Shown: positions 9,739 to 39,221 of the stretch, piece by piece
Layout of the letters: every line of letters begins with the position of its first letter
Numbering within the stretch: position 1 is the stretch's first letter
From: an uncultured Mycoplasmatota bacterium
GTDB lineage: Bacteria; Bacillota_I; Bacilli_A; RF39; UBA660
Direction: 5' to 3'
Assembly: GCA_900548695.1 (NCBI GenBank)
Contig: URLC01000002.1
Coordinates: 197,545-261,544, forward strand
DNA length: 64,000 nt
Translations under genes and position numbers: made by a program
Notes under the pieces: generated by a model
The model's input: only the letters and a program-made list of their open reading frames with translations
Databases searched by the model: none
Told to the model about the DNA's origin: nothing

Positions 9739-10965
9739 ATGAAGTGGAATGTAGCAGTATATTTAAGAGTTTCTAAAGAAGTAGATGATTTGTGTGAGAC
9801 TAACAGTTTAGATAACCAAAAACTGATAATTGAAAATTTTGTAAATAACAATCGAGATTTAGTTATTAAAGATTATTATATTGATAATGGATATAGTGGC
9901 ACAAATATGGAAAGACCTGCATTAGAGCAAATGATGGATGATATACATAATAAAAAAATAAATTGTGTAATCGTTAAAGATATGTCTCGATTTGCAAGAA
10001 ATTATGCATGATGCCAAATATATTTAGGAGAACGTTTTCCCAGTAATAACGTAAGATTTATTTCTATAAATGATAATTTAGATAGTTTAGAAAATCCTAA
10101 TTATACTGATAAACTGGAATTTGTTTTGCTAAATCTTGTTTATGAACATTATGCTATTGAAGCTTCTGAAAAAGTAACAACAATAAAAAGAATGCAACAA
10201 AAAAATGGAGATTATTTAGGAGTATCAGCCCCATATGGATATATTAAAGATCCAAATGATGGTCATAAAGTTTTAATAGATGATTATGCATCAAAGATAG
10301 TAAAACGAATTTTTGATATGACTTTAGAATGCAAGAGTAGAAATGAAATAGTAGATATATTAAATGATGAATGTGTATTACCACCTTCTAAATATAAAGC
10401 TGAAATTATAAAAGTAACAAGTTTATCCACTAAGATAGCAGAAAAGTGGCAGCCTAACATGATTAGAGAAATATTAAAAAATGAATTCTATATTGGTAAC
10501 ATGGCACAAGGAAAAGTAAGAAAACCTACTAGAAGATTAAATAAACTTGTAAAAGTGTCTAAAGATGATTGGATAGTGGTAGAAAATACACACGAAGCTA
10601 TTATAGATAAAAATGATTTTGAGACAGTTCAAAGAATATTAGAATTTTCTTCCTCAATTTTAAATTCTAGTGAAATGTTGCTAATGTATTTAAAATGTCC
10701 TGATTGCAATGGTATATTTCATAAAAAGAAAACTAAATATAATGAGTACTATTATTGTAATACTTATTATAGAAACAAGGGATGTTCTAAACATTCAGTT
10801 ATAAAATCAGTTTTAGAAGAAATGGTTTTAGAAGATTTAAAAGAAAATATTGATCAAAATATCAAGTATTTAACAAAAGACATACTTAAAAAGTATATAA
10901 AAGATATTTTTATATTTGACAATGGAAAAATAGAAATTGAATACAAAAGTAAGGAGGTGAAATAA
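9739..10965 (+). pseudogene. large serine recombinase inactivated by a single in-frame TGA (10009-10011)
   Basis: N-terminus VAVYLRVSK...SLDNQ...IVKDMSRFARNYA is a resolvase catalytic domain. After the TGA the same frame continues ...GERFPSNNVRFISINDNLDS... and ends with a Cys-rich zinc-ribbon-like part (CPDCNG...YYYCNTY...GCSKH). Confidence 0.8.
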
Positions 10966-11143
10966 TGTCTTGGAATGAAATTTTAACTCAAATTGTAATA
11001 CCATTAATATCAGGATTTATTGGGGGAAGTATTGGGAACGTAGTTATACAAAAATATAGGGATTCAAGAAAATATGTAATGAAGTATAAAGATGTAGAAT
11101 TTAAAGTTGTTGGAGATGTTGTAAATGGAGAAAAAAAGTAAAA
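10965..11143 (+). CDS. small predicted membrane protein (58 aa), overlaps the start of the next gene
   Basis: ATG 6 nt after AAGGAGGTG. Contains the hydrophobic helix ILTQIVIPLISGFIGGSIGNVVI. Confidence 0.35.
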
Positions 11144-13461
11144 AACATTTTTTGTTAAATTTATTTACTAAATTTTCTGTTAAAGGAGATGTTGTAAATG
11201 GTGATAAATATGTTTTTAAAATGCCACCGTCTTTAAAAGAAGATCTCCTAAAAATTATTAATAAAAATGATGAAAACTATTCTGATTTTTATAAAAATTA
11301 TATTTCAAAATTTGACGAATTAGATAATTATGCTTTTTCTTTATTTTATCCTAATTTAATAAAGGAAGAGTTTTCGGTTAAGAGTAAACCATTGATATTA
11401 GGTAAAAAAATTATTAATTGGATTTATGGATTAGAAAAATTTCCTACTAAAGATATTGAAGAATTTTATAAATTAATAAAAGTTGAGTATAAGTTTAGTA
11501 ATGATACAGCTATTGTTAAGCGATGGAATGCTAATATTGCCTATTTTAATAATGATTTAAAAAGAGCTTCTGATAATTATAGCAAGCTATATGATGATTT
11601 AAAAGATGTTGATAGTATACCTAAATGGTATATCGATGATATTTGCATAGATGGAAGAAATATTTTACACCAATATGGAAACACACAAAATACTCATTAT
11701 TATAATAATAAATATCAAGATAAAATATCATCAAATCCTCATAAATTATCTTATCCAGATGTTGATCGTATAAAAATTAATATTTATGAAAATGTATCAA
11801 AACATATATTTAATAATAAAAACAAGGCAAAATATACAATTATTTATGGTGCTGGGCTTGAGGAAATTTTCAAGGAAATACAAAATCTAGTCTATTTAAC
11901 TATTTTTTATGGTTCTATAACTCATTTAAAACTTATTAGGGAATTAATTTCAGATATAATGTATATGTATGCCGAAACATTTGAAGATGAACAATTTTAT
12001 AAACTATCTTTGAAAATGTTATTTATTAGTGGAAAGTACAAAGAATTTAGAAATTTATACAATAAATTAAAACTAAATTATTCTTTTGTAAATTCAGAAG
12101 AATTTATTAAAGATATATTGAATTCAAGGAAATCATTGTTTGGTTTTGAAATAAATAGAAATAGTATTTTTTTGTTTGATATATATGGAAGATATTTAGA
12201 TGATAATGTTTTTACAAAATTAGAAAATGAACTTTTTGAAATAGTAACAATTAACTCTAATTTTCAAATAGATTTAATTAGTAATGCTTTTAAAGCAATA
12301 GCGGCTAATTTAATACGTTCAACTAATATTGGTTCATTGTTGAAAATAATGAAGAAATATTTCTTCAAGTCTTATTCAAGGTTTTATATTGATTTTGGTG
12401 GAATTATAAAAGCGGTAGATGTTAATAATTTATCATCATCTGAATTCTCTAATTTTAAATTTATTATAGATTCGTTGATTAAAGAAAAATCACATTTAAA
12501 TTATGATCTATCAGATCAAATAATTGCTATAAAAAAACGTAACCCCAAAATAACAAAGTATGATGAATTAATAGGAACTAATGGAACTTTAGAAAATTTT
12601 AAATACGAGGCAGAAAAAGATAATAACTATGTCGAAATGGCCAAAAAGGTTATTAAAATTTTTAAGGATGAACATGAAGTAATAGAAAAAAGATGTTCTG
12701 GTGTGTATTACGATAAATTCTCGGAATATAGGCTTGGCAATAAAATATTTCAAAAAGATTTATATAGTAAAACAAGAGAGTTTATTATAAATGATTACTT
12801 ACCTTTGGCGAAAAGTATAATAAAATCTGAGAAAGAAATAATTTATGAAAAGATAAAACATATTAAATATTTAAGTTATTTTTTAATGATAGAAAAAGAT
12901 TCGGAAATCGTAGACGAAGTAATCAAAGATATACATACTGTTGAATTTACAAAATTTAATGATGTTTCTACATTTGGTGGTGTTAAAGATAGAGATATAT
13001 ATGACTTAAAAATAAATATCATTATGTGTGATGTGATTTGTAATAAAATAAAATATAGTGATGGTTTAATTAAATATTTAGAAATAGCTATAAATAGAAA
13101 TGAAAATCTTGAAGAAATAGTTAACTGTATTTTAATATTAAATGATTATTGTATTTTGAATAAAGATGATATTCAAAATTTATATTTATTATTTAAAATT
13201 TGCTATAATGTTAATGATATTGATGTGAGAAATAAAATTGTAGAAATTAGTAATTGTTTTATTGAGACATTTTACCAAGAGGAAGTACTCGAAATTTTAA
13301 ATGAAAGATCAAAATATTTAAGTGAAGATGAATGTATAGGGTATATAAAGTTAATCACAAGTGTTAACGATAAAACAATATTTGATGCTAGTATTGAAAA
13401 CTTAAAAAACAATAGAAACTTTTATATAAAATATATGGTTGATAAATATTTAAAAGATTAA
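11125..13461 (+). CDS. large orphan protein (778 aa), predicted all-alpha, no recognisable domain
   Basis: Uninterrupted ORF in an extremely AT-rich stretch, directly downstream of the recombinase pseudogene. Confidence 0.6.
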   Translation: MEKKSKKHFLLNLFTKFSVKGDVVNGDKYVFKMPPSLKEDLLKIINKNDENYSDFYKNYISKFDELDNYAFSLFYPNLIKEEFSVKSKPLILGKKIINWIYGLEKFPTKDIEEFYKLIKVEYKFSNDTAIVKRWNANIAYFNNDLKRASDNYSKLYDDLKDVDSIPKWYIDDICIDGRNILHQYGNTQNTHYYNNKYQDKISSNPHKLSYPDVDRIKINIYENVSKHIFNNKNKAKYTIIYGAGLEEIFKEIQNLVYLTIFYGSITHLKLIRELISDIMYMYAETFEDEQFYKLSLKMLFISGKYKEFRNLYNKLKLNYSFVNSEEFIKDILNSRKSLFGFEINRNSIFLFDIYGRYLDDNVFTKLENELFEIVTINSNFQIDLISNAFKAIAANLIRSTNIGSLLKIMKKYFFKSYSRFYIDFGGIIKAVDVNNLSSSEFSNFKFIIDSLIKEKSHLNYDLSDQIIAIKKRNPKITKYDELIGTNGTLENFKYEAEKDNNYVEMAKKVIKIFKDEHEVIEKRCSGVYYDKFSEYRLGNKIFQKDLYSKTREFIINDYLPLAKSIIKSEKEIIYEKIKHIKYLSYFLMIEKDSEIVDEVIKDIHTVEFTKFNDVSTFGGVKDRDIYDLKINIIMCDVICNKIKYSDGLIKYLEIAINRNENLEEIVNCILILNDYCILNKDDIQNLYLLFKICYNVNDIDVRNKIVEISNCFIETFYQEEVLEILNERSKYLSEDECIGYIKLITSVNDKTIFDASIENLKNNRNFYIKYMVDKYLKD

Positions 13462-34142: not shown

Positions 34143-34821
34143 TTTTTCTAGATTAGAAGCACTAGTAGGGGTAGATTTTGTTAATTATCTACATGATAGG
34201 TCTATTTTTGTTTTAGGTGTTGGTGGTGTAGGCGGATATGTTTGCGAAGCTTTAGCTCGTAGTGGTATTGGAAAAATTATTTTGATGGATCCTGATTTAG
34301 TTGATGTTACCAATTTGAATAGACAAATTATTGCGTTAAATTCTACTATTGGGATGAAGAAAGTTCAAGTGATGAAAGACAGAATTTTGGACATTAATCC
34401 GAGGTGTGAAGTTGTTACTTTTGATACTTTTTTGACAAAAGATAATATCTCTATTTTAGATGAGATGTCATTTGATTTTTTAGTAGATGCTTGTGACACT
34501 GTTTCTACAAAACAAAGTATTATTCAGTATTGTTTAGAAAAACACCTTCCATTTATTACTTGTTTAGGTACAGCTAAAAAAATGAATCCTAGTCTATTAG
34601 AAATTACAGAACTAAAAAAGACCTATAATGATCCATTAGCTAGAATTTTAAGAAAGTATGTAAGGGATAATCAGTTAAAAGGTTCTATTCCAGTTTTATT
34701 TTCTAGTGAGTTACCTATTCAGTGTCAAGGGCTTGGTTCAACGGCTTTTGTTCCTAGCAGTGCTGGGCTTATGATTGGAAGTTATATAATACAAAAATTT
34801 TTAGACCAAAAAAAAGGATAG
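34126..34821 (+). CDS. tcdA: tRNA threonylcarbamoyladenosine dehydratase (ThiF/MoeB family, YrvM-like)
   Basis: VLGVGGVGGYVCEALARSGIGKIILMDPD.VDVTNLNRQ Rossmann motif of E1-like enzymes. Confidence 0.75.
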   Translation: MVKQHSFSRLEALVGVDFVNYLHDRSIFVLGVGGVGGYVCEALARSGIGKIILMDPDLVDVTNLNRQIIALNSTIGMKKVQVMKDRILDINPRCEVVTFDTFLTKDNISILDEMSFDFLVDACDTVSTKQSIIQYCLEKHLPFITCLGTAKKMNPSLLEITELKKTYNDPLARILRKYVRDNQLKGSIPVLFSSELPIQCQGLGSTAFVPSSAGLMIGSYIIQKFLDQKKG

Positions 34822-34840
34822 CTATGCTATCTTTTTTTTA
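34809..34840. terminator. bidirectional terminator between tcdA and lexA
   Basis: aaaaaaaa-gatagc-tat-gctatc-tttttttt. Confidence 0.6.
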
Positions 34841-35455
34841 GAACTTTCTATATAAGCCGATTGCTTTTCCTAGTATTGTAACATTTTTCAGGATGATTGG
34901 ATCCATGGTATCATTTTCTGGTTGTAATCTAAAATATCCATTTTCTTTGTAAAAAGTTTTAACAGTTACTTCATTGTCGTCATTCATAGCTACTACTGTG
35001 TCTCCATTATTAGCTGTGTTTTTGCGCTCTACAATTAAGATATCTCCGTCGTAGATACCTACATTTATCATGGATTCACCACTGACTTTTAAGGTGAATA
35101 TTTCATTTCTAGTTGTGAATAAATTAGTTGGTAAGGCAAAGTATTCATCTGGAGTTTCAATGGCTTCAATTGGACTACCAGCGGTTACTTTTCCCAGTAA
35201 GGGTACTTCAACAATGTTTTCATCTTTTTCTAGATATTCATTAGGAACTAGTACCTCGATTGTTCTATTTTTACCATTGCCTTTTTGAATGTAGCCTTTT
35301 TCTTCTAGTTTTGTTAAATGAAAATGAATGGTTGCAGGGGAGTTTAGATGGGCTTCCACTCCAATTTCTCTAACTGTTGGAGGGTAACCATATTTTGCAA
35401 TCCATTTTTTAATAATTTGTAGAATTATTTCTTGCTTAGTAGTTAGTTTTTCCAT
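34838..35455 (-). CDS. lexA: LexA repressor
   Basis: N-terminal winged HTH (GYPPTVREIG); C-terminal S24 peptidase with AG cleavage site, Ser (VSGESM) and Lys. Confidence 0.9.
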   Translation of the reverse strand: MEKLTTKQEIILQIIKKWIAKYGYPPTVREIGVEAHLNSPATIHFHLTKLEEKGYIQKGNGKNRTIEVLVPNEYLEKDENIVEVPLLGKVTAGSPIEAIETPDEYFALPTNLFTTRNEIFTLKVSGESMINVGIYDGDILIVERKNTANNGDTVVAMNDDNEVTVKTFYKENGYFRLQPENDTMDPIILKNVTILGKAIGLYRKF

Positions 35456-35502
35456 TGTCTACCTCCTTTTATACAAGTTTAACACTAGGTATGTAAAATG
35501 TC

Positions 35503-35553
35503 AAACAAATGTTTTAAAAATCTGTTGACACGAACAATCGTACGATATATAAT
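35503..35553. promoter_or_regulatory. divergent SOS-regulated promoter region with LexA-box-like sites
   Basis: CGAACaatcGTACg at 35531-35544 fills the 17-nt spacer between TTGACA (35525-30) and TATAAT (35548-53) of the + strand promoter. AAACaaatGTTT at 35503-35514 overlaps the putative lexA promoter on the - strand. Confidence 0.55.
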
Positions 35554-35580
35554 TGAGGTGTAATGAAGGGAGAGATGTGT

Positions 35581-35745
35581 ATGAAAATTAAAAAAATGGT
35601 AAAAGAGGGGTTCTGGTTATTTCTTCTTTATTCTTTTGTGACTTTATGTTTGTTTTTAGCAACTGATAGAATTGAACGTTTAGAACAAGTAGAGGGGGAT
35701 TTTCGTAATACGAATAGTAGTGTTTCCTTTAATTTTACTAAGTAA
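35581..35745 (+). CDS. small single-TM protein divergent from lexA; candidate SOS cell-division inhibitor (YneA/SosA-like role)
   Basis: 54 aa from the ATG at 35581 (RBS AAGGGAGAG). Helix FWLFLLYSFVTLCLFLA. Promoter contains a LexA-box-like site. Confidence 0.45.
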   Translation: MKIKKMVKEGFWLFLLYSFVTLCLFLATDRIERLEQVEGDFRNTNSSVSFNFTK

Positions 35746-35784
35746 AGTGTAAAGATTTATGTTATACTACTGTTAGGTGATGTT

Positions 35785-38388
35785 ATGAATAAAATAATCT
35801 TGGTAGATGGTAATAATCTATTGTTTCGTAGTTTTTATGCGACCGCTTATCAAGGAGTAATTATGAAAAACTCGAAAGGTTTTCCTACTAATGCATTATA
35901 TGGATTTATTAATATGATGAATAAGATTATTCAGGATGAAAATCCTAGCTATATTATGGTTGCTTTTGATAAAGGGAAAACTTTTCGACACGATAAATAT
36001 GGTGATTATAAAGCAGGACGTAGTGAGATGCCTGATGAGTTACGTTTACAATTTCCTAAAGCTAAAGAAGTCTTAGAAGCTATGGGAATTAAATATTTTG
36101 AGATTGATAATTATGAGGCTGATGATATTATTGGTACTTTGGCCAAAGAAGTTGAAATGCGTGATGATTATATAGCTACTATTGTTAGTAGTGATAAAGA
36201 TTTGTTGCAGTTGATTAGTGATAAGGTAGATGTAAAACTTTTAAAACAGAGTGGTCATATAATGATGACTAAAGAAGAATTTATTAAGACATATCAAGTT
36301 CCACCAATTAGAATGATTGATTTGAAAGCATTAATGGGCGATAGTAGTGATCATATTCCTGGTGTTAAAGGAATTGGTGAAAAAACAGCAATTAATTTAC
36401 TTTCTAAATTTGATAGTTTAGATAATTTATATGCACATATTGATGAGGTTACTGGTAAAACAAAAGAGAAGTTAGAAAATGATAAAGAAAATGCTTATAT
36501 GAGTTATGATTTGGCTACTATTTATAGAGATGTTTTACTTGATTTTAGTTTAGATGATTGTCGATATACTAAAGAAAATACGAAACGTTTTACAGAACTA
36601 TTACAAGAGTTTGAATTTCATTCTTTAATAAAAAAATATCATTTGGATCAAGATATACCAGTAGAAGTTAGGAAAGAAGATATGATTCATATTTTGCCTA
36701 TTGATCAGTTGGTTGCTAATAGTTTTTCATTTTATGTAGAAACTAGAGGTAGTGTCTATAGTAAGAGTGAGGTTTTGGGAATAGGTATTTATGATGGTAT
36801 TTCAGGCTACTTTATTTCTGCTTCAGAGTTAGAAAAATATAAAGATTTATTTTCTAGTAATAGTTTTAAATATACTTATGATTTAAAGAAAAATATAGTT
36901 GTATTAAATTCTTTAGGAATTTCTATTTCTAATGTGACTTTTGATACTATGATAGCAGCTTATTTATTAGATTATGTTGTTAAAGATGATATTAGTTTTG
37001 TTGCTCAAGCTTTTTCTGTTTCCATTCCTTTATATGATGATTTATATGGAACAGAAAAACGTCCTAAAGAAGTTAATTTAGAAACATTACAGGAGGTTTG
37101 TTGTCGTAAAGCTAAGTTTATTTATGATACTCGTAATCAATTATTAGAAGAGTTACAAAAAAATAATGAATTAGATTTATTTCAAAAGATAGAGATGCCA
37201 TTATCTTTAGTACTTGCTGATATGGAACTTACTGGTATTAAAGTAGATGTTTCATATTTAGAGAAAGTTGAAGAAGATTTAGCTGGTCAGATGGCTATTT
37301 TAGAAAAAGAAATTTATGATTTGGCAGGAGTAGAGTTTAATATTATGTCGCCAGCGCAGCTTTCAAAAATTTTATTTGAACATTTAGAAATTCCGTATCC
37401 TAAAAGAGTAAAAGATGGAAAATATTCTACTAGTAAAGATATCTTGGATAAGATTCGTTTTGTTCATCCAATTGTTGATAAAATATTAGAGTATAGAACT
37501 TTGGCTAAACTATATACTAACTATGCAGTTGGTCTTAAAGCAGAAGTGCGTGAAGATGGTAGAATCCATACTATTTTTACTCAGACTTTAACTAGAACAG
37601 GCAGACTTTCTAGCATTAGTCCTAATCTACAAAATATACCAGCTAGGGCAGAATTTTCTAGATTAATTCGTAAAGCCTTTGTTCCTGATGTTAATTCTAA
37701 GCTTTTATCTAGTGATTATTCACAAGTAGAACTTCGTATTTTTGCTCATATGTCTAAAGCTTTAAATTTAATTCAAGCTTTTAAAGAGGGTAAAGATATT
37801 CATACTAAGACAGCTTCTGATATTTTTCATGTTCCAATGGATGAAGTTACTAAGGATATGCGCCGCACAGCCAAGGCTGTTAATTTTGGTATTTTATATG
37901 GAATTAGTAGTTTTGGACTTAGCGAGGATTTAGGGATTGATATTAGTACAGCTAAAAAATTTATTGATAATTATTTGGAAACTTATCCTGGTATTTCAGA
38001 ATACATGGAAGAAGAAAAAAAGAAGGCTTATGAACTTGGTTATGTTACGACACTGATGAATCGACGACGAGTTATTGAAGAGTTAAAAAATAAGAACTAT
38101 ATGATTCGTAGTAGTGGAGAGAGAATGGCGTTAAATACACCAATTCAAGGTACTGCTGCTGATATATTAAAAAAAGCAATGGTTGAGATTTACGATGAGT
38201 TTAAACGTCGTGGTTTAAAGAGTAAAATGTTAATTCAAGTACACGATGAGTTGGTGTTTAATGTTTTAGATTCAGAATTGGAAGAAGTTAGTCAAATCGT
38301 TAGAAATATTATGGAAAGTACAATAAAACTTAGTGTGCCTTTGAAAGTTGATATTGAATATGGGAATAATTGGTACGAAGCAAAGTAG
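35785..38388 (+). CDS. polA: DNA polymerase I
   Basis: 5'-3' exonuclease, 3'-5' exo-like and polymerase domains (RRTAKAVNFGILYG, VHDELVF). 867 aa. Confidence 0.9.
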   Translation: MNKIILVDGNNLLFRSFYATAYQGVIMKNSKGFPTNALYGFINMMNKIIQDENPSYIMVAFDKGKTFRHDKYGDYKAGRSEMPDELRLQFPKAKEVLEAMGIKYFEIDNYEADDIIGTLAKEVEMRDDYIATIVSSDKDLLQLISDKVDVKLLKQSGHIMMTKEEFIKTYQVPPIRMIDLKALMGDSSDHIPGVKGIGEKTAINLLSKFDSLDNLYAHIDEVTGKTKEKLENDKENAYMSYDLATIYRDVLLDFSLDDCRYTKENTKRFTELLQEFEFHSLIKKYHLDQDIPVEVRKEDMIHILPIDQLVANSFSFYVETRGSVYSKSEVLGIGIYDGISGYFISASELEKYKDLFSSNSFKYTYDLKKNIVVLNSLGISISNVTFDTMIAAYLLDYVVKDDISFVAQAFSVSIPLYDDLYGTEKRPKEVNLETLQEVCCRKAKFIYDTRNQLLEELQKNNELDLFQKIEMPLSLVLADMELTGIKVDVSYLEKVEEDLAGQMAILEKEIYDLAGVEFNIMSPAQLSKILFEHLEIPYPKRVKDGKYSTSKDILDKIRFVHPIVDKILEYRTLAKLYTNYAVGLKAEVREDGRIHTIFTQTLTRTGRLSSISPNLQNIPARAEFSRLIRKAFVPDVNSKLLSSDYSQVELRIFAHMSKALNLIQAFKEGKDIHTKTASDIFHVPMDEVTKDMRRTAKAVNFGILYGISSFGLSEDLGIDISTAKKFIDNYLETYPGISEYMEEEKKKAYELGYVTTLMNRRRVIEELKNKNYMIRSSGERMALNTPIQGTAADILKKAMVEIYDEFKRRGLKSKMLIQVHDELVFNVLDSELEEVSQIVRNIMESTIKLSVPLKVDIEYGNNWYEAK

Positions 38389-38402: not shown

Positions 38403-39221
38403 ATGCCAGAAAAACCAGAGGTAATTACAGTTGCTAAGAAGTTAGAGAGGCAAGTAATAGGGAAAACTATTACAGATACGATTATTTATTGGGATAATAT
38501 TATTGCATATCCCGATGTTTCATCTTTTCAAAAAGAAATAGTTGGACAGAAAATACTATCTATTACTACTAGAGGTAAATGGTTAGTGTTTGAACTTAGT
38601 AGGGATTTATTATTAGTTCATCTAAGAATGGAAGGCAAGTTTTTCTTTAGAGATAAAAAGGATGCTAGAAATAAACATGAACATGTTTTTTTCACTTTAG
38701 ATGATAAAGTTAGTTTTCGATTTCATGATGTTAGAAAATTTGGAAAGATGTATTTACTTCCTAAAGATAAAGCATATTCTATGAAGCCACTTTCGGAATT
38801 GGGGTTAGAATATAATGATGAACTTTTAACTGCTGATTATTTATATCAAAAGATACATAGTAAGAATTTACCTATTAAGACAGTTTTATTAGATCAAAGG
38901 ATTATTACAGGAATTGGAAATATTTATGATGATGAAATTTTGTTTTTTAGTCATATTTCACCTCTTAGGAAAGCTAAGGATATTACTTTGGATGAGTGTG
39001 GTTTCATTATTGAAAATACTAGAGAAGTTTTAGATGAAGCTATTACTATGGGTGGGACTACAATTAAAAGTTTTACTTCCAGTGAAGGGGTTCATGGCCT
39101 TTTTCAAAATAAGTTGGCTATTCATGGAAAAAAGGGAAACTGTCCCGTTTGTGGCACTGCTACTTTAAAAATTAAAGTAGGAGGAAGAGGAACATATTAT
39201 TGTCCCAATTGTCAAAAGTAG
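38403..39221 (+). CDS. mutM: formamidopyrimidine-DNA glycosylase
   Basis: Starts MPEKPEV (catalytic Pro2/Glu3). H2TH region and C-terminal zinc finger CPVCGT...CPNCQ. Confidence 0.85.
   Translation: MPEKPEVITVAKKLERQVIGKTITDTIIYWDNIIAYPDVSSFQKEIVGQKILSITTRGKWLVFELSRDLLLVHLRMEGKFFFRDKKDARNKHEHVFFTLDDKVSFRFHDVRKFGKMYLLPKDKAYSMKPLSELGLEYNDELLTADYLYQKIHSKNLPIKTVLLDQRIITGIGNIYDDEILFFSHISPLRKAKDITLDECGFIIENTREVLDEAITMGGTTIKSFTSSEGVHGLFQNKLAIHGKKGNCPVCGTATLKIKVGGRGTYYCPNCQK

Follow-up and report, generated by a model that had tools for sequence, protein, structure and literature searches.

A small membrane protein gene divergent from lexA behind a predicted LexA box in uncultured gut Bacilli: a candidate SOS division-checkpoint effector

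In Bacillus subtilis, Listeria, Staphylococcus aureus, Mycobacterium tuberculosis and Corynebacterium glutamicum the gene divergent from lexA encodes an SOS division inhibitor (PMC6851548), and small membrane inhibitors beside lexA are widespread (PMC13396833). The way in which they arrest the divisome is just beginning to emerge: the membrane helix of YneA binds transmembrane segment 7 (TM7) of FtsW, the same is predicted for SosA, ChiZ and SidA, and FtsW TM7 has been proposed as the common target (PMC13396833). We analysed a stretch of 64,000 nucleotides (nt) on contig URLC01000002.1 of an uncultured Mycoplasmatota bacterium, an AT-rich DNA (28.5 % G+C) referred to below as the window, in which lexA stands back to back with a gene for a membrane protein of 54 amino acids (aa). 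By analogy with SosA and YneA, and with a probability of roughly 0.6, we propose that this small protein is a LexA-repressed effector of a division checkpoint.

The likeness to SosA of S. aureus (77 aa) extends to several features: the small protein is encoded divergently from lexA under predicted LexA control, and its predicted layout has the N-terminus inside, one helix, an extracellular C-terminus and no LysM domain (PMC6851548). In both, going by the published description of SosA (PMC6851548), conservation peaks directly beyond the membrane on the outer side, and the helix is predicted to extend past the membrane, in SosA (PMC13396833) as in the AlphaFold2 model obtained here. The family described here differs in being shorter, 46-58 aa against 77 aa with a tail of about 24 aa, and in belonging to a different lineage, of uncultured gut Bacilli. 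The staphylococcal SosA family is further characterised by experiment, with overproduction blocking division, deletion making cells more sensitive to genotoxic stress, and CtpA turning the protein over (PMC6851548). Similarly, YneA (B. subtilis, Listeria) and ChiZ (Rv2719c, M. tuberculosis) are SOS-induced, two-sided membrane proteins encoded divergently from the adjacent lexA (PMC13396833), with Cheo-type operators in the shared intergenic region according to Kawai 2003 as cited in PMC6851548. They have a single N-terminal membrane helix, which is predicted here as well, and the small gene is likewise divergent from lexA under predicted LexA boxes. In contrast, YneA and ChiZ depend on an extracellular domain, LysM, that binds peptidoglycan, whereas none of 47 members of the present family matched LysM. 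YneA has 105 aa, so that the small protein is about half its size. SidA and DidA of Caulobacter crescentus are proteobacterial, are not encoded beside lexA and have another operator type, DidA being independent of LexA; a sequence relation to the small protein is not expected. They resemble it as very small damage-induced inner-membrane proteins, and they block late division via FtsW or FtsN while leaving the Z ring undisturbed (PMC13396833). A preliminary description of this DNA had drawn the parallel with lexA-yneA and lexA-sosA; the position of the gene and its SosA-like layout support it (PMC6851548), and division inhibition would follow by analogy.

The 125-bp region between lexA and the start codon of the small gene (35456-35580) carries two back-to-back promoters. 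The promoter of the small open reading frame (ORF) lies on the plus strand at 35525-35553 and matches the consensus at 12 of 12 positions, with TTGACA at 35525-35530, a spacer of 17 nt and TATAAT at 35548-35553. Bases 1-14 of the 17-nt spacer (35531-35544) form a predicted LexA box, CGAACAATCGTACG, which we call box 1. The Gram-positive LexA operator, or Cheo box, reads CGAACRNRYGTTYC, with GAAC-N4-GTTC as the form found in B. subtilis (PMC4234289). Box 1 has one mismatch to the latter (GTAC), matches 9 of the 10 core positions of CGAACN4GTTCG and is the sole site in the 64-kb window that comes within one mismatch of that sequence. On the minus strand, the lexA promoter (35476-35504) consists of the -35 hexamer TTGACA (35504-35499), a spacer of 17 nt and an extended -10 element TGTTAAACT (TGnTAAACT, 35481-35476), scoring 10/12 plus the TG in the promoter scan. 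A second predicted operator, box 2 (35502-35515, CAAACAAATGTTTT, with AAAC-AAAT-GTTT at 35503-35514), overlaps this -35 hexamer; we take it, from its sequence, to be the autoregulatory operator of lexA. In Clostridioides difficile, half-sites of the type GAAC-N4-GTTT are listed as predicted LexA boxes of lexA, recA and ruvC (PMC4234289). The preliminary description had claimed a site one mismatch from GAAC-N4-GTTC inside the 17-nt spacer of a TTGACA/TATAAT promoter, a 54-aa protein with a single transmembrane segment behind that promoter, and an AAAC-N4-GTTT site overlapping the promoter of lexA; all of these were confirmed.

When the window was considered by itself, the numbers of boxes were not significant (GAACN4GTWC, one found and 1.4 expected; CAAACN4GTTTK, one found and 0.43 expected), and the argument therefore rests on comparative data. 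We used 86 lexA loci (LexA 70-100% identical), namely 80 from a LexA scan of species-representative genomes (LexA 70-96% identical), the window and five from look-ups. These genomes, assembled from metagenomes, carry the labels Bacilli, Tenericutes/Mycoplasmatota or Erysipelotrichaceae; Candidatus Scybalousia, Onthousia and Faecenecus are among them. A homologue of the small protein, 46-58 aa long, was found divergent from lexA in 74 of the 86 loci, its end lying some 290-370 nt away from the start of lexA. In all 74, box 1 directly follows the TTGACA of the divergent promoter, a hexamer that is itself retained in nearly all of them. In the window's genus the box reads CGAACAATTGTATG or a form ending in GTACG, and elsewhere in the group CGAACAATTATTCG, AGAACAATTGTTCG or TAAACAACTGTTCG; three distant loci (L069, L078 and L081) have the canonical CGAAC-N4-GTTCG, 10/10, at the same position. 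One half-site is always perfect, while the central N4 varies freely. As in the Cheo box, a palindrome lies within the putatively regulated promoter, with conserved half-sites and a free N4. The 11 loci that lack any trace of the small ORF have no boxed TTGACA promoter before polA or other genes. On the lexA side, the -35 hexamer carries GTCAAAC-N4-(G/C/A)TT(T/C) in every one of the 86 loci, and in distant species box 2 has GTTCG, CTTCG or ATTCG as its right half; the -35, the TG and TAAAC(T) of the lexA promoter are invariant in alignment A2 and retained across the 86 loci.

A symmetrised LexA-box matrix was built from 50 unique box 1 sites. It reads CGAACAWWTGTTCG, with the strongest conservation at A4 (0.99), C5 (0.90) and A3 (0.81) and values of at most 0.54 at positions 7 and 8; as far as can be judged from sequence, this is the LexA operator of the lineage, newly defined here. 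Box 2, to which the matrix had not been trained, was the second-best site in the window at 13.9 bits, the next one scoring 8.8. In 1.35 Mb of DNA, 26 of the 27 sites matching at least 9/10 core positions were situated 70-160 nt upstream of lexA, and at a matrix score of at least 12 bits, 158 sites lay upstream of lexA as against 6 elsewhere. The sole strong box away from lexA by this core match (L069:15713) stands outside any promoter context and is apparently a chance occurrence within a gene. No tblastn match to recA was obtained in the 1.39 Mb of collected locus DNA. With the operator seated in this way at the divergent promoter, it is very likely, as judged from sequence, that LexA controls the small gene.

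Some loci carried further boxes. Among the only six sites of at least 12 bits away from lexA, one in a relative (L016:3743-3756) is a perfect palindrome, CAAACAGTTGTTTG, just upstream of a TATACT -10 element. It precedes a gene for a 289-aa protein with a KilA-N domain (L016:3861-4730) inserted between gmk and pyk, and this is probably a LexA-controlled gene of mobile-element or antirepressor type. At L047:1-40, a second TTGACA-CACAAACGTTTGTATG promoter follows the terminator that ends the small ORF. Upstream of lexA in L062, L065 and L072 three or four boxes were seen, including one in the lexA leader (CACGAACATATGTAAAC).

The small gene occupies 35581-35745 on the plus strand. Its 54-aa product begins with MKIKKMVKE, continues with the membrane helix GFWLFLLYSFVTLCLFLAT and ends with DRIERLEQVEGDFRNTNSSVSFNFTK. 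We chose this start because a GGGAG (35568-35572), within the ribosome-binding site AAGGGAGAG at 35566-35574, sits 8 nt before the ATG at 35581, and because relatives start at the equivalent methionine; an equivalent GGAG is retained in them. A 60-aa reading from the ATG at 35563 (35563-35745) was rejected, because just 2-3 nt separate this ATG from the probable start of the transcript and it lacks a properly spaced ribosome-binding site. A database search returned 40 proteins 70-96% identical to the small protein, the closest named relative coming from Candidatus Faecimonas, and an exhaustive profile search returned 42 cluster representatives (clusters at 50% identity), nearly all of 47-69 aa. 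In these searches the family did not extend beyond a single group of uncultured bacteria. Differences between close relatives were distributed over codon positions 1, 2 and 3 as 648/225/1097, as befits an ORF that is translated and under purifying selection.

We also approached the locus from the side of the small protein. A metagenome search with it gave 12 loci, and in 11 of them lexA was divergently adjacent and both boxes were present. The twelfth (L101) was a spurious weak match, GC-rich, with 28 aa matched and no lexA. The link between the small ORF and lexA thus holds with either gene as the search anchor, and the conservation of the ORF beside lexA in relatives, on which the preliminary description had made its proposal depend together with enrichment of the box at other SOS genes of the genome, was borne out from both directions. 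No copies were found when viral contigs were searched with the small protein. In one of the distant loci (L081, at about 330-470), a perfect CGAACAACCGTTCG box and a promoter stand before a small ORF that has an in-frame TAA after MKKK but is otherwise intact (...LRIQRL...), and a prepilin-like gene then follows in place of polA; the ORF is either a pseudogene or the result of an assembly error. Two loci (L068 and L070) have a different gene divergent from lexA, starting MSMATLVYT... and preceded by a conserved stem-loop CTCTTAAC...GTTAAGAG, and their lexA has two adjacent CAAAC-type boxes.

The architecture of the protein was examined in 71 unique sequences with a median length of 52 aa. The head of 9 aa has a net charge of +2.5 and is positive in 99% of the sequences; it is followed by a single, strongly hydrophobic stretch of 19 aa with a mean hydropathy of 2.35, corresponding to a membrane helix at about residues 10-28, and by a slightly acidic tail of about 24 aa, which comes to about 26 aa in the window protein. 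From charge and hydropathy the N-terminus is therefore predicted to be inside and the C-terminus outside. Conserved throughout the family are a Gly before the helix and a Tyr within it, and R-[IVLM]-x-x-[LI]-[EDN] occurs just past the helix in 66 of the 71 sequences. In the window protein this conserved segment adjoining the membrane is R-I-E-R-L-E, and an additional motif, FRNTNxSVS, is found in the window's genus. AlphaFold2, given 47 sequences, modelled residues 2-38 as one unbroken helix and the tail as disordered (pLDDT 75). Searches of Pfam, NCBIfam and PHROG with the small protein and 47 relatives found no family, with only sub-threshold matches typical of membrane helices, and LysM gave no match at E<=1 in the window protein or in any of the 47 family members.

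The lexA gene itself lies at 34838-35455 on the minus strand and encodes 205 aa with an N-terminal winged-helix DNA-binding domain and an S24 self-cleaving domain (PF01726 LexA_DNA_bind, 4.4e-20; PF00717 Peptidase_S24, 2.1e-34). The protein scores 221.5 bits against the TIGR00498 equivalog, above the cut-off of 110.95, is 37% identical to Escherichia coli LexA and matches LexA structures in the PDB with E down to 2.5e-36. Its cleavage site VTA92-G93SP aligns with A84-G85 of the E. coli protein, and the catalytic dyad in GES128M and TVK166T aligns with S119 and K156. Judged by its sequence, this LexA is complete and catalytically competent.

Downstream of the small gene, polA (DNA polymerase I; 35785-38388, plus strand; 867 aa with Pfam 5_3_exonuc_N, 5_3_exonuc, DNA_polI_exo1 and DNA_pol_A) starts 39 nt after the small ORF, and fpg/mutM (formamidopyrimidine DNA glycosylase; 38403-39221, plus strand; 272 aa) starts 14 nt after polA, a spacing which suggests a polA-fpg operon. 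The longest ORF for fpg begins at a TTG at 38370 and overlaps the end of polA. It was not retained: the orthologues have 272 aa starting MPEKPEV, with Pfam Fapy_DNA_glyco, H2TH and zf-FPG, and the real start is therefore the ATG at 38403. No terminator-like site was predicted between 35745 and 35785, and read-through into polA-fpg is plausible for this reason, though secondary; transcription from the SOS promoter is likely to run on here and would add damage induction of both genes to a constitutive level. The 39-nt spacer also contains an extended -10 promoter element for polA (TGTTATACT, 35760-35768, plus strand). The corresponding TGnTATAMT is present between the small ORF and polA in nearly all loci and also before polA in loci without the small ORF. 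Of the preliminary statement on polA, immediate adjacency and plausible co-transcription stand; on the other side, polA has its own extended -10, and it has no box before it where the small ORF is missing. Across the set, polA begins at most 100 nt past the stop codon of the small ORF in 62 of 74 loci. In 8 of the 11 loci without the small ORF it directly follows lexA, with only the TGnTATAMT promoter and no box. Conversely, the box and the small ORF are retained where a terminator hairpin follows the ORF (L036, L047 and L027) or where a gene other than polA lies downstream (L078 and L083). From this pattern of gain and loss, the operator belongs to the small gene and not to polA.

From the promoter anatomy and from established LexA biology we infer that LexA would bind both boxes and that the locus would be induced by damage. 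LexA at box 2, over the -35 hexamer, would repress its own promoter, and LexA at box 1, between -35 and -10, would repress the very strong divergent promoter by classical promoter occlusion. Upon DNA damage, RecA-stimulated self-cleavage of LexA (Ala92-Gly93, Ser128/Lys166) would derepress both promoters, leading to a 54-aa membrane protein with its N-terminus inside and its C-terminus outside. By analogy with SosA and YneA, the protein most likely binds the late divisome via its membrane helix, FtsW being the target favoured in the recent literature, and the DRIERLE extension of the helix together with the outside tail would stall septal wall synthesis until repair is complete. Transcripts from the promoter of the small gene would probably continue into polA-fpg. 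The checkpoint role is proposed because the lexA-divergent gene of other Gram-positives encodes an SOS division inhibitor, and on this analogy we consider inhibition of division moderately likely.

Several observations weigh against this proposal and have to be set beside it. The 86 loci are phylogenetically related, so that the conservation counts are not independent events, and about one in eight of the related species has no small gene. The training sites of the matrix were picked by their likeness to the Cheo box, which makes the matrix partly circular for box 1, though not for box 2. In the window's genus box 1 is degenerate, with GTAC or GTAT as the right half, and box 2, with the half-sites AAAC and GTTT, matches just 7/10 core positions; both are therefore sub-consensus operators. 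When the window was extended by 10 kb on each side, ruvAB was found 3-4 kb beyond its upstream edge, with no box of at least 8/10 nearby. Finally, the small protein, which has no LysM domain, showed no resemblance in sequence to YneA or ChiZ.

The number of boxes in the window, which is not above the chance expectation, would also agree with a chance match within an ordinary conserved promoter to which LexA does not bind. This explanation is effectively refuted by the concentration of strong matches upstream of lexA, both by core match (26 of 27 in 1.35 Mb) and by matrix score (158 against 6), and by the box itself, whose half-sites are conserved around a variable N4, which is canonical in distant relatives and which is lost together with the small ORF. 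It is also unlikely, though less so, that the operator and promoter mainly serve to make polA-fpg damage-inducible and that the small ORF is a leader peptide or a passenger. The two downstream genes are indeed repair genes, and polA is close behind the small ORF in most loci with no terminator in between. However, polA has a conserved extended -10 promoter of its own, the eight species with polA directly after lexA have no box before it, the box and the ORF are kept in front of a terminator hairpin or an unrelated gene, and the peptide sequence itself is under purifying selection.

Two further explanations accept LexA control and assign the protein another function. TisB and DinQ, the SOS-induced type I toxins of E. 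coli, are peptides of 27-29 aa that lie entirely in the membrane, are paired with antisense RNAs and act by depolarisation. Like these LexA-repressed small hydrophobic peptides, the small protein is hydrophobic and LexA-regulated, by prediction, from a near-consensus promoter, and no homology gives it a function; it could accordingly be a membrane-active toxin or persistence factor that depolarises the membrane and does not inhibit division. But the TisB/DinQ type, a peptide of less than about 40 aa made up almost wholly of membrane helix, does not describe a protein of 54 aa with a basic head of 9 aa and a conserved outside tail, in which some 24 residues, including the conserved membrane-adjoining segment, lie outside the membrane. 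Moreover, the promoter scan gave no antisense promoter within the small ORF, nor was any feature of an antisense RNA evident at the locus; between 34700 and 36000 there was no Rfam match at E<=1, a search that covers known RNA families and that a novel RNA could escape. The fixed position beside lexA is typical of Gram-positive checkpoint inhibitors (PMC6851548), and there were no copies on viral contigs. We regard a toxin as improbable, if slightly less so than the leader or passenger. The least improbable of the alternatives, still an unlikely one, is a LexA-regulated membrane protein in some other role, such as envelope repair, competence, mobile-element control or modulation of a protease or of LexA/RecA. 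It draws on the fact that the function is assigned by analogy and that the family is limited to one uncultured group, but nothing positive speaks for any specific alternative, and position and architecture best fit the pattern of a checkpoint inhibitor.

If the small protein is a checkpoint effector as proposed, the regulatory logic and the position of the gene are already known, being textbook Gram-positive biology, and in this respect the gain is incremental. The novelty lies in the protein family, which lacks LysM, is the shortest such candidate and comes from a widespread but uncultured gut lineage, and in the definition of the lineage's operator. The main damage-induced division brakes of Gram-positives are small lexA-adjacent membrane proteins, with an unrelated protein in each lineage. 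More than 70 natural variants with a sharp motif (the invariant Tyr in the helix; R-I/V-x-x-L-E/D outside) make up a compact comparative data set from which to ask what features suffice for inhibition, and the operator CGAACAWWTGTTCG permits the SOS regulon of the group and LexA-controlled prophage genes to be predicted from metagenomes. A wider reading, which we offer tentatively and rate somewhat short of an even chance, is that the proteins of 46-58 aa are undescribed minimal SOS checkpoint effectors of a large group of uncultured gut Bacilli, the smallest LysM-free lexA-adjacent inhibitors, and that the same LexA-gated promoter also reads into polA-fpg. Arrest would then use only a membrane helix, the R-I-E-R-L-E extension and a short outside tail, and the read-through would tie division arrest, through one shared transcript, to repair by base excision and gap filling.

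At the other end of lexA, a hairpin between an A-run and a T-run (34817-34831) lies between lexA and a convergent thiF-like gene. It is terminator-like on the minus strand (GATAGCATAGCTATC, then the T-run) and is probably a bidirectional terminator.

Other features were noted at a distance from the lexA locus. One relative carries, as an insertion downstream of pyk, a gene of the ApeA_NTD1/HEPN_Apea type for a defence-type HEPN nuclease (L004:9092-10462), which the window lacks. At 9739-13461 of the window, a serine recombinase is seemingly split into a Resolvase ORF of 90 aa and a Recombinase/Zn_ribbon ORF of 279 aa (annotation of L086 and L088) and is followed by a 778-aa protein without a Pfam family; this may be a decayed integrative element. 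Additionally, three tandem genes for proteins of about 445-454 aa without a Pfam match were found at 47619-51639, between divIB (POTRA_1) and ftsA. The first and the third, by their appearance multi-pass membrane proteins, are clear paralogues of each other (38% identity, E = 7e-75), and the three genes sit in a cluster of division and cell-wall genes.

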